Source: a virus (taxonomy: Duplodnaviria; Heunggongvirae; Uroviricota; Caudoviricetes). Taken from it: 5,471 nt of DNA. The notes under the pieces were generated by a model. It had not been told where the DNA came from. It made no database searches and saw only the letters and a list, made by a program, of their open reading frames with translations. Positions 790-5,471 of the stretch are shown one piece after another. The DNA lies in the IMG/VR virus record IMGVR_UViG_2713896904_000005; one strand, 5' to 3'. Numbering within the stretch: the stretch's first letter is position 1; every line of letters begins with the position of its first letter. The translations under genes were made by a program, and so were the position numbers.

Positions 790-1179
790 TCAGGCGGCTG
801 CACCCGCCGGTTTCTCGTACTTCCTGATAGTGATCTCGACCTTCCCTTCCGGGATAACCGGTCCCCACTCCACCAGCATTCTTTTCACCTGACTGTCGTC
901 TTCCCACACACCCGCGTGGGTCAGGGCGTCAAACAGCGCCTTGTTATAGTTGTCCAGATCGCGGATCCGGTTATCCGGAGGAAACAACACGATCTCCACT
1001 GAAGCAGGTGCCGACGTTGGTTTTGGCAGACGACGTAACTGCTCAACTATTGCTGCACACGCCGCGCTCTGGAATTTGTGCCCCGCTGCGCTTATCAGGC
1101 TCTTACCAGCAAACGCCCCTTTGTTAGGGTGTCGCCAGTACGTGTTCACGCTGGGCGGAAAAGGCAGTATTAGCTTCAT
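790..1179 (-). CDS. rusA: Holliday junction resolvase RusA (crossover junction endodeoxyribonuclease)
   Basis: 129-aa ORF MKLILPFPPSVNTYWRH...DNRIRDLDNYNKALFDALTHAGVWEDDSQV matches E. coli RusA as I recall it (LPWPPSNNRYYR...[29 protein letters not shown]), including the acidic catalytic residues. Start overlaps the upstream gene by 4 nt (ATGA). Confidence 0.9.
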   Translation of the reverse strand: MKLILPFPPSVNTYWRHPNKGAFAGKSLISAAGHKFQSAACAAIVEQLRRLPKPTSAPASVEIVLFPPDNRIRDLDNYNKALFDALTHAGVWEDDSQVKRMLVEWGPVIPEGKVEITIRKYEKPAGAAA

Positions 1180-1502
1180 ACTTTCAGGCCCCTCTCATGT
1201 AACCAGTGGGCTGCACGCAGCCTGGCGTTTTCCTCACCGGCAAGCAGTGAGCGGATAATCCCGACCGCCTCGCTGTCGTCGTCCTTCACCGCGGTATGAA
1301 GCGTTATCCCCCGGGCCACGCCACGCTTTATCGTGATGACGCCTTTTTTCTCCAGCGCACGAAGATGCTCCACCGCTGCATTCACCGAACGGTATCCCAG
1401 CATGGTTGCCACCTCCTGATTGGTTGGTGGGAAGCCACGTTCTTTCTGATAAGAAATCAGCATATCCAGCACCTGCTGCTGGCATTGAGTTAACGTCGTC
1501 AT
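1176..1502 (-). CDS. LexA N-terminal DNA-binding-domain-like protein lacking the S24 peptidase domain (108 aa)
   Basis: MTTLTQCQQQVLDMLISYQKERGFPPTNQEVATMLGYRSVNAAVEHLRALEKKGVITIKRGVARGITL aligns colinearly with the LexA N-terminus ([68 protein letters not shown]). The ORF stops about 40 residues after the domain; no Ala-Gly site or Ser/Lys dyad. ATG at 1502..1500 overlaps the upstream TAA (TAATG) and follows a GGGGG SD-like run. The ORF track's alternative start at 1535 is a GTG. Confidence 0.7.
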   Translation of the reverse strand: MTTLTQCQQQVLDMLISYQKERGFPPTNQEVATMLGYRSVNAAVEHLRALEKKGVITIKRGVARGITLHTAVKDDDSEAVGIIRSLLAGEENARLRAAHWLHERGLKV

Positions 1503-1992: not shown

Positions 1993-2934
1993 TCACCCCC
2001 TGAATCCTGCCGGGATCTGGCTGTAGTCCACTTTGTCGTAACTGGCTTTGAAGTACGGGTCTTCGCGTTTTTCGGTGTACGTGCTGACGGACGGCGATAA
2101 GCGCAGGGAAAGCTCATCCCATTTTTCCCGCAGCTTCGACGGGCTGAGCACGTTACGGCACCAGAACGGATCGCGACTGACGCGGCTGTACATCTCGCAG
2201 ATTTGTTTGTGAGTACGACCATCCTGCACACACATCAGGCGAATTTCGTTTGCCCAGGCTGTCCAGTTCGGTTCTTTGGGACGAACCACCTCGCCGTCAC
2301 ATTCGGCGGCCTGCTCGTACAGGGCGATGATTTTTTTCCAGAGCCACTGTGCGCAGGTCAAATCATCCTGCGTTCCCCACTGGCGCTTTTTAGGGCTGAA
2401 TACAACCGCATCAGGATGGCGAGTTAAAAACTCCTGTTCAGCCGTCTGCGTGTCCGGTTGCGAAGCGTCCGGACGAGAAGTTTTTTTATCTGACGGATCA
2501 TGTTTTGATTTTACTGACGGATCCCCGCCAGATTCTGACGGGTGAAAACCCGCTTTTTTGCCAGATTTCGACGCATCAAATTTTGACGGGTCAGATTTTG
2601 ATGCGTCAGATTTTGACGGGTCAGAATCTGACAATTGAGAAAATGCCGCTGCCTGAAGCTTCGCAATGTTAAGCTGATAAACATTCGACGCATTGCGGTT
2701 ACCCTGGCGACGCGCCTTACGCGTTAACCAGCCTTCTGCTTCCAGCCGTGCGATAGCCGTTCTGACGGTACTCATCCCCGCGCCAATCTGACGGGCAATG
2801 GTTTCAATTGATGGCCAGCACACACCTTCGTCATTACTGAAATCAGCCAGGCGGGCCATAATTGCCACGCTGGATAATTTCATGCCTGACGCTGCGCAAC
2901 CATCCCATACATAGCCGGTTAATTTAGTGCTCAT
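1993..2934 (-). CDS. Replication initiator protein, lambda O-like (N-terminal helix-turn-helix, iteron-encoding linker)
   Basis: 313-aa ORF with N-terminal MKLSSVAIMARLADFSNDEGVCWPSIETIARQIGAGMSTVRTAIARLEAEGWLTRK, typical of phage replication-initiator HTH domains. AGAGG SD 6 nt before ATG 2934. Low-complexity linker (DPSKSDASKSDPSKFDASKS) is encoded by a tandem DNA repeat array, the lambda O arrangement. Follows cro/CII-like genes. Confidence 0.85.
   Translation of the reverse strand: MSTKLTGYVWDGCAASGMKLSSVAIMARLADFSNDEGVCWPSIETIARQIGAGMSTVRTAIARLEAEGWLTRKARRQGNRNASNVYQLNIAKLQAAAFSQLSDSDPSKSDASKSDPSKFDASKSGKKAGFHPSESGGDPSVKSKHDPSDKKTSRPDASQPDTQTAEQEFLTRHPDAVVFSPKKRQWGTQDDLTCAQWLWKKIIALYEQAAECDGEVVRPKEPNWTAWANEIRLMCVQDGRTHKQICEMYSRVSRDPFWCRNVLSPSKLREKWDELSLRLSPSVSTYTEKREDPYFKASYDKVDYSQIPAGFRG
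2486..2635. repeat. Putative phage origin of replication: array of 15-bp iterons (consensus TCAGATTTTGACGGG) plus flanking AT-rich tract, inside the O-like gene
   Basis: Five contiguous 15-bp units at 2561..2635 (ccagatttcgacgca / tcaaattttgacggg / tcagattttgatgcg / tcagattttgacggg / tcagaatctgacaat). Further copies of the TGACGG core at 2491, 2515 and 2536. A T-rich stretch at 2477..2490 lies on the side expected for an unwinding element. Confidence 0.7.
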
Positions 2935-2943
2935 GACCGACCT

Positions 2944-3282
2944 CTATTTCCCTGAATTTACGACGAAACTGTTCGAGCGGGCTGAAGCACTCATGCTCAT
3001 AGCCTTCACGGAGGTAGATAACCCGTTGTGTTTCCGGCTCCCAACGAATGACTCTGACGGGCACTCCGTAGTGATCTTTGAACCAGCGGTTAACTTGTCG
3101 CAAAGGACTGTCTCCTTCTGCCGGTTGAAATCACCCACAGCCCACTCTGCAAAGCTGTGGGTTACAATTTCCCTGTCACCTGGTACATTCACTGCATAGC
3201 AATACTCCACCTTCGCTTTTCCACCCGGTACAGGAAGCGCAATCAGTTGCGAGCGACGGTAGTGTGTTGTTAAACTGTTCAT
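2944..3282 (-). CDS. Hypothetical protein (112 aa), no recognisable domain
   Basis: ORF between the CII-like and O-like genes. ATG 3282..3280 overlaps the upstream stop (ATGA) and is preceded by GGAGA (rc of 3292..3296). Position and coupling argue for a real gene. Confidence 0.55.
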
Positions 3283-3842
3283 GCGTTAGTTTCTCCACAG
3301 TCACGACACGCCACGGCGCCCGGAGCTGCACACTCGCGGGCGTCATTACTTTCTGAAATGCAAAAGATTTTGTAGACCAGTGCTGCATGCTCCTGCAGCT
3401 TCGAAATTGAGAGATACAGCTCGTCGTTAATTGCTGTCTTCTCATGCGGTTCCACTACACCGTCTTCGATTGCTGAACGAATCTGTTTTGAATAACTGCC
3501 GATCTGTTCAATGACTTCCAGCAGACGCTGGTTAATATCGGCGTTGTCCACATCCTCGACGTCAGGAAGAGACACAAAGACGCCATTTGCAGACTGCGCC
3601 ACAGCGTCAGCAATGAAGTGAGTTCCACCAGCACGTTGCAAAATCATTGCCCATCCCAGCGGGAAAATCTGATCGCCATCGGCACGAAGGCGGTTAAATA
3701 ATGCGTTCTCTGTTACATCCAGCCAGTCAGCTGCTTCAGCGTAACCACCCGGCAACTTTGCGATAGTTTTTCTGACAGCTTTCACGTACCACTCAGGCTG
3801 TTTTTCTACTTTCCAGTGATGCTTACCCACGGTTAGCCTCAT
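3279..3842 (-). CDS. CII-like phage regulatory protein (187 aa; CP76/YdaT-like position after cro)
   Basis: Second gene of the rightward operon, 31 nt after the cro-like stop. N-terminal half has an HTH-like stretch ([42 protein letters not shown]) loosely resembling lambda CII. C-terminus carries four Cys (C-x9-C-x7-C-x2-C). No clear SD before ATG 3842, and no in-frame alternative start upstream before a stop at 3900..3902. Confidence 0.6.
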
Positions 3843-3873
3843 CGTTCTGTGGTTAAAAATTGAAAGTGTTCTG

Positions 3874-4074
3874 CTAATCTTTCGGATAGATATCCGGTCT
3901 TAAGTCAGATTTCGTAATTGCACCTGATGTGTATTGCTCAAGTTTTTTAGCCAGCACAAAACTGGCTTTTTTATAGCCATTGAAAACCAGCCGTAAGTAG
4001 CCAGGTGTTGAGCCAACTTTTCCGGCCAACTCGCCCTGCTGTTCTTTGGTTAAAGAGTCCCAATACGCTTTCAT
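3874..4074 (-). CDS. Cro-like helix-turn-helix repressor (66 aa)
   Basis: MKAYWDSLTKEQQGELAGKVGSTPGYLRLVFNGYKKASFVLAKKLEQYTSGAITKSDLRPDIYPKD is a small Cro/YdaS-type HTH protein with the characteristic C-terminal ...LRPDI motif. Divergent from the CI-like gene. ATG 4074 has GGAGG (rc of 4085..4089) upstream; the track's 4098 start has no SD and falls in the operator region. Confidence 0.8.
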   Translation of the reverse strand: MKAYWDSLTKEQQGELAGKVGSTPGYLRLVFNGYKKASFVLAKKLEQYTSGAITKSDLRPDIYPKD

Positions 4075-4164
4075 ACAATATGTACCTCCGGTGTACATAT
4101 TACATGATTAAAATGAACCTTCAAGATACTTGTACCTTAACGGTACAAGGGTTTTAATTTCGTT
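4075..4164. promoter_or_regulatory. Divergent promoter/operator region (OR-like) between cro-like and CI-like genes
   Basis: Two 19-bp inverted-repeat sites: 4080..4098 ATGTACC-tccgg-TGTACAT (6/7 half-site symmetry) and 4130..4148 TTGTACC-ttaac-GGTACAA (perfect). Candidate cro promoter on the minus strand: -35 TTGAAG (rc of 4119..4124), 16-bp spacer, -10 TAATAT (rc of 4097..4102). Candidate cI promoter -10 TTTAAT at 4153..4158, just before ATG 4165. Confidence 0.6.
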
Positions 4165-4839
4165 ATGAAAACAATCCATGACATCCGGCGGTCTAACGCC
4201 AGAAAACTGAGAGATGGTGTTGGCGGGAATTCTTCCTTTGCCACTATGATTGATCGCGAGCCAACCCAGACCAGCAGGTTTATGGGAGATGGTGCTACTA
4301 AAAATATCGGTGACAGCATGGCACGACACATCGAAAAATGTTTCGACCTGCCTGTAGGATGGCTCGATCAAGAACACCAGACAACGAACATCACAAAAAA
4401 ACCTGATGTTTCAATCACTAATAAACAAATCACATTAGTCCCTGTCATATCATGGGTACAGGCCGGAGCATGGAAAGAAGTTGGATATTCTGAGGTTGAT
4501 TTGAGCACAGCAGAAACGTATCCCTGCCCTGTACCCTGTGGGGAAATGACTTATATCTTGCGGGTGATAGGTGATTCAATGATTGATGAGTACCGCCCGG
4601 GAGACATGATTTTTGTCGATCCTGAAGTACCTGCCTGCCACGGTGACGACGTTATTGCATTGATGCACGATACAGGTGAAACCACCTTCAAAAGGTTGAT
4701 AGAAGATGGGACACAGCGTTATCTCAAAGCGTTAAACCCAAACTGGCCTGAGCCTTACATTAAGATCAACGGTAATTGCTCTATAATTGGTACTGTGATT
4801 TTCTCAGGAAAACCAAGAAGATACAAAATCAAAGCCTAA
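4165..4839 (+). CDS. CI-like phage repressor with N-terminal HTH and C-terminal LexA-type S24 autopeptidase domain
   Basis: 224 aa. HTH region (FATMIDREPTQTSRF...MARHIEKCFDLPVGWLD). Probable cleavage site VQAG-AW (compare lambda CI VQAG-MF). Ser nucleophile in LRVIGDSM and Lys in TTFKRL, matching the LexA/CI Ser-Lys dyad context. Divergent from the cro-like gene. Confidence 0.9.
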   Translation: MKTIHDIRRSNARKLRDGVGGNSSFATMIDREPTQTSRFMGDGATKNIGDSMARHIEKCFDLPVGWLDQEHQTTNITKKPDVSITNKQITLVPVISWVQAGAWKEVGYSEVDLSTAETYPCPVPCGEMTYILRVIGDSMIDEYRPGDMIFVDPEVPACHGDDVIALMHDTGETTFKRLIEDGTQRYLKALNPNWPEPYIKINGNCSIIGTVIFSGKPRRYKIKA

Positions 4840-4851
4840 TCAATGTTTATG

Positions 4852-4874
4852 AACCTGCTTCGGCAGGTTTTTTT
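4852..4874 (+). terminator. Rho-independent terminator downstream of the CI-like gene
   Basis: Stem AACCTGC (4852..4858), UUCG tetraloop (4859..4862), stem GCAGGTT (4863..4869), then a T run through 4874, 13 nt after the CI stop. Confidence 0.75.
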
Positions 4875-4878
4875 ATAC

Positions 4879-4912
4879 TTGACAATGTACCCTTTAGATA
4901 CATAATGTACCC
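4879..4912 (+). promoter_or_regulatory. Strong sigma70-type promoter (pL-like) with embedded operator
   Basis: -35 TTGACA (4879..4884), 16-bp spacer, -10 CATAAT (4901..4906). The spacer and -10 contain the 19-bp site ATGTACC-cttta-GATACAT (4885..4903), same architecture as the two OR sites. A further ATGTACC half-site lies at 4905..4911. Confidence 0.65.
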
Positions 4913-4990
4913 AAGAGAAACAACAAACAGGCAGGACGCCCACGAAGTAGCCGCCTGGGGCATATGAAGTCCAGGATGATTCGTTAGCAA

Positions 4991-5028
4991 CAAAAAAGCG
5001 CCCTACAGGACGCTTAGCTCTTTAACAA
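4991..5028. promoter_or_regulatory. Leader hairpin plus boxA-like element (GCTCTTTAACAA)
   Basis: Inverted repeat AAGCGCCC-taca-GGACGCTT (4996..5015). On the minus-strand RNA it forms an 8-bp stem with one G-U pair followed by U6, so it is terminator-like for leftward transcription. On the plus-strand RNA the stem has a C-A mismatch. Immediately 3' on the plus strand, GCTCTTTAACAA (5017..5028) matches the rrn/nut boxA consensus as I recall it. Confidence 0.4.
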
Positions 5029-5073
5029 TCTGGTCCCCATCAACAAGTAACTGATAACTTGAGGAGGTGTGAA

Positions 5074-5280
5074 ATGCACAAAACAGAACCAAAAATCGTC
5101 GCACCCGGATACACAAATGAGGAAATTTACGAGTGGATGGCAAAGAAGCTGGCAGCTATAAACCAGCTTCGTGAAGTGCTGTCTTATCGACAGGAAACAA
5201 TAGACTCCTTAAAAAAACTGGATCAGGAAATCACGGTTTTATCACAGGATGTTACTTTAGATATTGTGCAGACAAATTAG
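5074..5280 (+). CDS. Small hypothetical protein (68 aa), first ORF downstream of the pL-like promoter
   Basis: ATG 5074 preceded by a strong SD GAGGAGG (5061..5067) at 6-nt spacing. Product MHKTEPKIVAPGYTNEEIYEWMAKKLAAINQLREVLSYRQETIDSLKKLDQEITVLSQDVTLDIVQTN is predicted helical/amphipathic with no family I recognise. The track's 5059 start is a TTG that falls on the SD itself. The antisense strand is full of stops. Confidence 0.6.
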   Translation: MHKTEPKIVAPGYTNEEIYEWMAKKLAAINQLREVLSYRQETIDSLKKLDQEITVLSQDVTLDIVQTN

Positions 5281-5471
5281 GATCCCATTCATTTTCGTCA
5301 AAATCATCAAAGTGATGAATTTGTGATCTCCAGTCTCGATAATCTAAAAATTTCTGGGCGGTTACGCTTATTTTATCAAGCGTGAGTTCATCCTGAATTG
5401 AAAGAAGAAGTTCATCTGAACCGCCCCGGGTTTCCTGGAGAGTGTTTTATCTGTGAACTCAGGCTGCCAGA

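Follow-up and report, generated by a model that had tools for sequence, protein, structure and literature searches.

Positions 4879-4923 of the 5,471-bp stretch of viral DNA analyzed here (IMG/VR record IMGVR_UViG_2713896904_000005; "the window") very probably hold the early-left promoter-operator of a lambdoid prophage of the e14/SfV/SfIV type, i.e., an analogue of the left promoter and left operator of phage lambda (pL/OL), placed directly after the gene for the CI-type repressor. Such a reading had been put forward in an earlier note drawn up from the letters alone, and it is now supported by the identity of the neighboring genes, the position of the element, the class of its operator, its co-evolution with the repressor and the direction of the operon that follows. 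As a promoter-operator it is an ordinary element of the textbook type, which one GenBank record already labels simply as "promoter"; for this immunity group it appears to be experimentally uncharacterized.

The window contains the immunity and early region of the prophage. Its positions 3800-5416 share 99% identity with Shigella phage SfIV; for the immunity part, identity is 98% with SfV and 95-96% with Ayreon, cdtI, 2H10 and a group of Stx2c phages. At least 80% of the window is present in more than 500 complete E. coli genomes, where the genes at this locus are called ymfK (repressor), ymfT (cro-like) and ymfL (cII-like), which are the names used in the cryptic prophage e14 of strain K-12. 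As presented, cI reads rightward and cro, cII, the replication genes and Q read leftward; below, the early operons are named as in lambda, so that the leftward operon lies on the plus strand together with cI. The cI-type gene (4165-4839, plus strand) was assigned from its open reading frame (ORF), profile searches (PHROG 4 "transcriptional repressor", E 1.7e-49; PF00717, E 1.5e-26), annotation (cI in SfIV and SfV, ymfK in E. coli) and alignment. It encodes a homologue of YmfK/CohE with a C-terminal S24 self-cleaving peptidase domain; the Ala-Gly cleavage site (A100-G101) and the Ser/Lys dyad (S138, K176) are kept across the homologue alignment. Profile searches also identified the Cro-like repressor gene (3874-4074) and the CII-like gene (3279-3842), both on the minus strand.

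The promoter consists of a -35 hexamer TTGACA (4879-4884) and a -10 hexamer CATAAT (4901-4906) separated by 16 nt (4885-4900), both read directly from the plus strand and both conserved among relatives. The earlier note had called this combination near consensus, and its coordinates and letters are exact: the two hexamers match the sigma-70 consensus at 11 of 12 positions, the only match of at least 11/12 on either strand of the window, where about 0.067 would be expected (2000 first-order Markov resamplings). The same note had placed the promoter on the cI strand beyond the terminator of that gene, which also proved correct. A terminator scan located an intrinsic terminator of the cI transcript at 4851-4876 (plus strand; 8-bp stem, UUCG loop, 7 T) whose T-run abuts the -35 hexamer; the promoter lies 40 bp 3' of the cI stop codon. 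This terminator is annotated in the SfV and Ayreon records and its stem shows compensatory changes among relatives. The Ayreon record independently annotates a promoter at the homologous position, and the SfV record annotates the terminator and the right operator (OR) region only. From promoter geometry, transcription is predicted to start at the A residues 7-8 nt after the -10 hexamer (4913-4914, plus strand).

The 19-bp operator OL1 (4885-4903), ATGTACC-CTTTA-GATACAT or ATGTACCCTTTAGATACAT, fills the whole spacer and extends over the first three base pairs of the -10 hexamer, exactly as had been described. It scores 11/12 against ATGTAC-N7-GTACAT and belongs to the same sequence class as the operators found between cro and cI, so that its earlier description as a further operator copy holds. 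When the pattern TGTACC-N5-GRTACA was searched with at most one mismatch, the window gave matches at 4081, 4131, 4886 and 4906 only; the chance expectation is about 0.04 matches, and the observed count was reached in none of 200 shuffles. The last of these matches corresponds to a second half-site, ATGTACC (4905-4911, about -9 to -3 of the predicted start). Here the earlier claim of a further half-site just downstream is borne out by a perfect left half, accompanied by a poor right half: the complete site (4905-4923) scores 9/12. Together with 4912-4923 the half-site may serve as a weak OL2, although the apparent conservation of its right half (AACA) is more readily attributed to the conserved RNA leader beginning there. 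The post-cI region thus has one full site and a conserved left half-site, with 20 bp between their centres. There is no third site, and none could lie upstream because the cI terminator abuts the -35 hexamer.

The corresponding operators in the OR region support this assignment. The best palindrome of the window, ATGTACC-N5-TGTACAT (4080-4098; 12/12), lies in the -10/+1 region of pR and is conserved in all relatives. Its centre (CCTCC) carries the Shine-Dalgarno sequence of cro (GGAGG, minus strand), which accounts for a conserved centre at this site when the centre of OL1 is free to vary. The site adjoining cI, TTGTACC-N5-GGTACAA (4130-4148; 10/12), overlaps the putative -35 of pRM. Between them, a weaker putative operator, ATGAACC-N5-GATACTT (4113-4131; 9/12), overlaps the putative -35 of pR and is kept in relatives as ATGAACC-NNCAA-GRTACT. 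The probable pRM itself (4130-4167) combines TTGTAC (4130-4135) and TTTAAT (4153-4158) over 17 nt and ends 7 nt before the cI start codon at 4165, a geometry that implies a leaderless cI mRNA as in lambda. In K-12, ymfK mRNA was mapped as leaderless by differential RNA sequencing (PMC4681348), which fits the TTGTAC-17-TTTAAT promoter and adds to the lambda-like picture.

Conservation across a wide range of repressors provided further evidence for the post-cI element. Repressor homologues were gathered, a spread of them was aligned, and 79 genomic loci were fetched. In 27 of these loci, from about 20 genera and with repressors 43-100% identical, the repressor gene is followed by the same unit, i.e., terminator, TTGAC(A), A, TGTACC, 5 variable bp, G(G/A)TACA and TAAT. 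The genera include Escherichia, Klebsiella, Pantoea, Serratia, Erwinia, Edwardsiella, Proteus, Rosenbergiella and Morganella. The -35 hexamer is TTGACA in 24 of the 27 loci (TTGACT or TTGACG in the remaining three) and the -10 hexamer is CATAAT in 25, with CATTAT in two Symbiopectobacterium loci. The operator arms are essentially invariant, and the five central bases differ in almost every lineage (CTTTA in the window, TTTGA in e14, CACGA in SfIV and CATGA in SfV, with identical arms). Such a combination of invariant arms and a free centre is the signature of a site for a dimeric protein embedded in the promoter. Of the 27 loci, 19 have the ATGTACC half-site unchanged and another has it with a single substitution; in Symbiopectobacterium, Proteus, Rosenbergiella and Morganella it has degenerated or disappeared.

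Other relatives separate the effect of the repressor from that of location. In Salinicola and Halomonas caseinilytica (repressor identity 51-52%), an extra gene follows cI, and the unit recurs 0.9-1.1 kb downstream as TTGACG-AT-GTACC-N5-GGTAC-TTTAAT. In six Kushneria loci (43% identity), TTAACCA replaces TGTACC around the post-cI TTGAC hexamer (6/6) as well as between cro and cI (5/6), and this change of word at both sites indicates that the post-cI operator tracks the specificity of the repressor. Similarly, in phages of other immunity types that share the RNA leader described below, the pL region carries the OR-type words of each phage's own repressor. In one Halomonas locus (L037), no post-cI operator was found within the fetched flank. 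Overall, the predicted promoter-operator unit is one that, by these comparisons, follows the repressor rather than a position. The extra gene of Salinicola and H. caseinilytica (loci L032-L034, about 3200-4300 of each) has a P-loop motif in two of the three loci (L033 and L034); standing where lambda has rexAB, it is a candidate exclusion or defence gene expressed in the lysogen.

Compared with phages of the same immunity, mosaic breakpoints occur at about 4922 (cdtI, 2H10), about 4936 (Ayreon, Stx2c phages) and about 4985 (SfV). Breakpoints directly after the unit are expected of a part of the immunity module. From about 4986 onward, the window carries a mosaic insert that SfV and e14 lack, and the authors of the SfIV genome singled out the neighboring ORFs 35 and 36 as unique genes without assigned function among Shigella phages (PMC3851460). 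Both observations would also suit a constitutive "moron" promoter that is active in the lysogen and serves only the first ORF, the operator-like sequence then being a dead remnant of a duplication of OR. However, the promoter-operator is conserved over at least 10 different downstream contexts, invariant arms around a drifting centre are not the pattern in which a remnant decays, and the Kushneria operator word changes in step with OR. We therefore consider a moron promoter very improbable, and a repressor-controlled early promoter the better explanation.

Downstream of the predicted start, the first ORF of the leftward transcript encodes 68 aa (5074-5280, plus strand) behind a strong ribosome-binding site (GAGGAGG, 5061-5067). 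It belongs to PHROG 1744 (E 4.8e-34), a family without assigned function, and is annotated as a hypothetical protein in NZ_CP075472. The earlier note had the leftward early genes begin at about 4913. This stands for the predicted 5' end of the transcript; the first ORF starts only at 5074, and a structured leader (4923-4984) precedes it. An ECs1072-family gene (5252-5471, minus strand; PHROG 5286, no assigned function) then runs off the window, forming a convergent, slightly overlapping pair with 5074-5280. In the complete prophage of NZ_CP075472, the downstream plus-strand genes extend to an excisionase-like helix-turn-helix gene and, at tRNA-Thr, an integrase gene; a single gene of opposite orientation lies between, and e14 is laid out alike (ymfK, ymfJ, then ymfH, xisE, intE). 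Judged by this gene order, the promoter would drive a leftward early operon ending in xis and int.

Expression data for e14 are relevant, since its ymfK-ymfJ spacer has the same promoter, operator arms and half-site and differs only in the central operator bases. In K-12, ymfJ, ymfH, xisE and intE are strongly induced by azidothymidine (AZT) only if LexA is cleavable, i.e., with the SOS response on (PMC11228462). Left-arm and right-arm genes of e14 also form, together with sulA and recN, one co-expression module termed the YmfT iModulon (PMC10602906; gene list in PMC12132413). The authors of the AZT study credited the induction to weak LexA boxes within e14 rather than to a prophage repressor (PMC11228462), and by extension the promoter at 4879 might be under direct control of host LexA. 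We consider this as improbable as a moron promoter. The dependence on LexA cleavage would follow equally well if cleavage of an S24-type prophage repressor required activated RecA and the SOS response, and the operator matches the OR of the prophage itself. Moreover, a search with the 20-bp LexA consensus gave no match at all with three or fewer mismatches, and the four matches to CTGT-N8-ACAG (at most one mismatch) all lie away from the promoter. Because the Ala-Gly site and the Ser/Lys dyad positions are kept in the repressor and nothing resembling a LexA box lies near the promoter, we infer that SOS-dependent self-cleavage of the repressor, freeing both pR and this promoter, is more economical than LexA boxes.

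The following sequence of events would account for these observations. In the lysogen, dimers of the CI-type repressor (the YmfK/CohE homologue) would occupy OL1 and probably also the half-site that adjoins it and overlies the start point. Counted from a start at about 4913, OL1 covers about -28 to -10 and the half-site region -8 to +11; the occupied operator would most likely exclude sigma-70 RNA polymerase sterically from the near-consensus promoter. Following DNA damage, the repressor would cleave itself under stimulation by RecA, as suggested by its conserved cleavage-site and catalytic residues, and so free this promoter together with pR. Transcription would then start at about 4913 on the plus strand and proceed through the leader (4923-4984) and a boxA-like sequence (5017-5028) into the leftward early operon ending in xis and int.

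Several points weigh against this account. The second operator is a half-site only, and the sites are located in the spacer and over +1, unlike lambda OL1-3. The first downstream genes include an oppositely oriented one, which makes the extent of the transcript a matter of prediction, and the LexA-based explanation favored by the AZT study, discussed above, has to be counted here as well. Finally, the searchable literature contained no footprint or electrophoretic mobility shift assay for YmfK/CohE and no start mapped at the promoter; the SfIV paper (PMC3851460) does not describe this promoter, and the Reg-Seq supplement holds no ymfJ data.

Comparison of the sequence following the promoter revealed a conserved, structured RNA leader of the pL transcript, 62 nt long (4923-4984, plus strand) and beginning about 10 nt after the predicted transcription start. 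It is built from a closing helix (P1), two hairpins of 3 bp (P2) and 7 bp (P3), and single-stranded stretches that are invariant. In an alignment of 18 phage and prophage sequences, the RNAalifold consensus contains three helices with 15 pairs, nine of which show compensatory double changes. Standard pairs occupy 97% of the pair cells, compared with 23-43% when the partners are slid by 1-3 columns. On four of five measures the observed value was reached by none of 500 shuffles, and on the fifth by nine. Folding 4913-5073 as a single sequence gave no information (z = -0.43), i.e., the structure is visible by comparison only. A covariance model (R1) scored 90.8 bits in the window and 79-96 bits at 23 leader loci, with one copy each and always on the cI strand; three further matches were weaker (18-67 bits). 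Since a covarying plus-strand structure requires plus-strand transcription at this place, the leader independently supports the predicted start.

The leader behaves as an autonomous module. It is present in SfV, e14 and many genomic loci, its first part being identical in e14, SfIV, SfV and Ayreon, and it also occurs 3' of repressor genes of quite different immunity, namely in SfII, ST64B, phiNP, Eeyore, ZF40, AH07, YeP1, mEp237, SPN3UB and a Klebsiella phage. A 21-nt core of the leader was found in at least 120 IMG/VR contigs. The flanks are mosaic on both sides: the leader follows promoters of dozens of operator types and precedes unrelated genes, with ten recurrent first ORFs downstream belonging to mutually unrelated PHROGs without assigned function. 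A sigma-70 match of at least 9/12 lies within 72 nt of the leader in 80% of 97 distinct upstream contexts, compared with 4.8% of random segments. A role acting on the whole transcript or on the elongation complex (processive antitermination, anti-pausing or 5' stabilization) may be hypothesized as the simplest explanation for mosaic flanks on both sides combined with a fixed tie to the 5' end of the early-left transcript.

None of the first downstream ORFs belongs to an N-family PHROG, no Arg-rich N-terminus stood out among them, and the SfIV authors reported that SfII, SfIV and SfV lack an N gene (PMC3851460). The HK022-type put RNA was rejected as the identity of the leader: with filters off, R1 gave no match at HK022 putL or putR or at the annotated putL-like RNA of HK639 (best off-target score 12 bits, elsewhere), and the HK022 and HK639 RNAs resemble one another and not this leader. 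Neither the window nor 17.4 kb of early region in the full prophage yielded a second, putR-like copy of the leader. A full-text literature search for the core sequence returned nothing, and Rfam, searched with cmscan over the entire window (E up to 1), contained no match to the leader, the one hit being a spurious mir-5880.

Behind the leader, a terminator scan identified a hairpin at 4996-5015, with an A-run on its plus-strand 5' side, as an intrinsic terminator on the minus strand, i.e., for transcription that converges on pL and cI. Read on the plus strand, the hairpin begins 12 nt after the leader and lacks a U-tail. It is followed on the same strand by GCTCTTTAACAA (5017-5028), read directly from the sequence and identical to the core of an rrn-type boxA, the binding motif of NusB/NusE; we take it to be a boxA on the strength of the established rrn consensus TGCTCTTTAACAA. 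The hairpin-boxA pair occurs in 23 of 145 leader-bearing loci. Given the antisense gene in the path of the leftward transcript, RNA in that region would be untranslated and exposed to Rho, and a complex of Nus factors on boxA is a plausible aid for the transcript to cross it.

The same features could be read differently, with a real promoter whose main product is a short regulatory RNA (the leader, perhaps terminated at the 4996-5015 hairpin and the U-rich boxA) instead of a long operon, and an operator that serves mainly as a distal OL for looping to OR. The autonomy of the leader between its two mosaic flanks would agree with this, as would the hairpin and AGCUCUUUAA 12 nt after the leader and the oppositely oriented gene that begins about 340 nt downstream. 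Conversely, in most other phages the leader is followed directly by ORFs and not by a hairpin, the hairpin of the window has no proper U-tract on the plus strand and scored as a terminator on the minus strand only, and the left-arm genes of e14 are induced together as far as intE (PMC11228462). No other obvious promoter for the xis-int arm turned up either, none having been searched for. A mainly short RNA is thus improbable, if somewhat less so than the LexA and moron alternatives, and a long leftward transcript is preferred. On that transcript, the leader could represent an undescribed class of promoter-proximal, cis-acting RNA that confers termination resistance or otherwise conditions the leftward early transcript of N-less lambdoid phages, analogous to put with an unrelated fold and joined here by an rrn-type hairpin-boxA pair for crossing the antisense gene. 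We offer this proposal tentatively and regard it as possible rather than probable.

Two further features of the rightward operon were noted. The replication gene (1993-2934, minus strand) contains iteron-like direct and inverted repeats at 2505-2640 (TCAGATTTTGACGG and variants), which probably mark the origin and which gave rise to the mir-5880 match (2559-2633). A small protein encoded at 1176-1502 (minus strand) is annotated in NZ_CP075472 as a "LexA family transcriptional regulator" and resembles the N-terminal DNA-binding domain of LexA without the peptidase domain, which would make it a non-cleavable LexA-like protein. Its presence in an induced phage would merit attention.

With the promoter-operator, the regulatory map becomes complete for a very common immunity type, which includes e14 of K-12, the serotype-converting Shigella phages SfIV and SfV and several Stx2c and cdt phages. 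It would also provide a simpler account of SOS induction of e14 than weak LexA boxes, as a single S24-type repressor would release two promoters that face away from its gene on either side. Both the predicted operator, TGTACC-N5-GRTACA, and the predicted start site are open to direct test. The leader RNA is the more consequential by-product: if it acts on elongation, it would be a second widespread N-independent solution to early antitermination in lambdoid phages.

Compared with known systems, the hairpin followed by GCTCTTTAACAA on the transcribed strand (4996-5028) repeats the order of the rrn leader antitermination signal, in which the hairpin also precedes boxA. It differs from rrn in that only a subset of relatives has the pair, the hairpin doubles as a minus-strand terminator, and no boxC was identified. 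HK022 pL-putL and the putL-like RNA of HK639 resemble the window in their setting, a lambdoid phage that lacks N and encodes a structured RNA of about 60-70 nt directly after pL; put consists of two long stem-loops, whereas the leader is a closed three-helix fold for which no second copy was found in the rightward operon. The OL half-sites of HK022 (L086, 820-900, minus strand) are similar in sequence (ATGTAC/GTACAT and ATGAAC/GTACAT) at a spacing 2 bp shorter, and its repressor N-terminal domain, when read unaligned beside that of YmfK, shows no resemblance.

As in lambda, a strong sigma-70 promoter lies downstream of the cI unit and co-directional with it, is overlapped by operators of the OR class, and precedes a leftward early operon ending in xis and int; the promoter would be kept silent in the lysogen and freed when SOS sets in. 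The lambda arrangement has three OL sites extending upstream over the -35, in place of the one full site and half-site seen here, and its OR-OL distance is 2.3 kb, compared with about 0.8 kb in the window. In lambda, rexAB separates cI from pL, where the window has a terminator only and the Salinicola relatives have their insert. Lambda pL is also followed by N and nutL (boxA then boxB), and the window has no N gene and no lambda-type nutL; this difference is not decisive because some accepted members of the group, e.g., HK022, lack them as well. The closest counterparts are e14 (in the ymfK-ymfJ spacer), SfV, SfIV and Ayreon, which differ from the window in the five central operator bases and, downstream of about 4985, in a different mosaic module, but carry the same element: both hexamers, the operator arms, the half-site and the initial part of the leader are identical.

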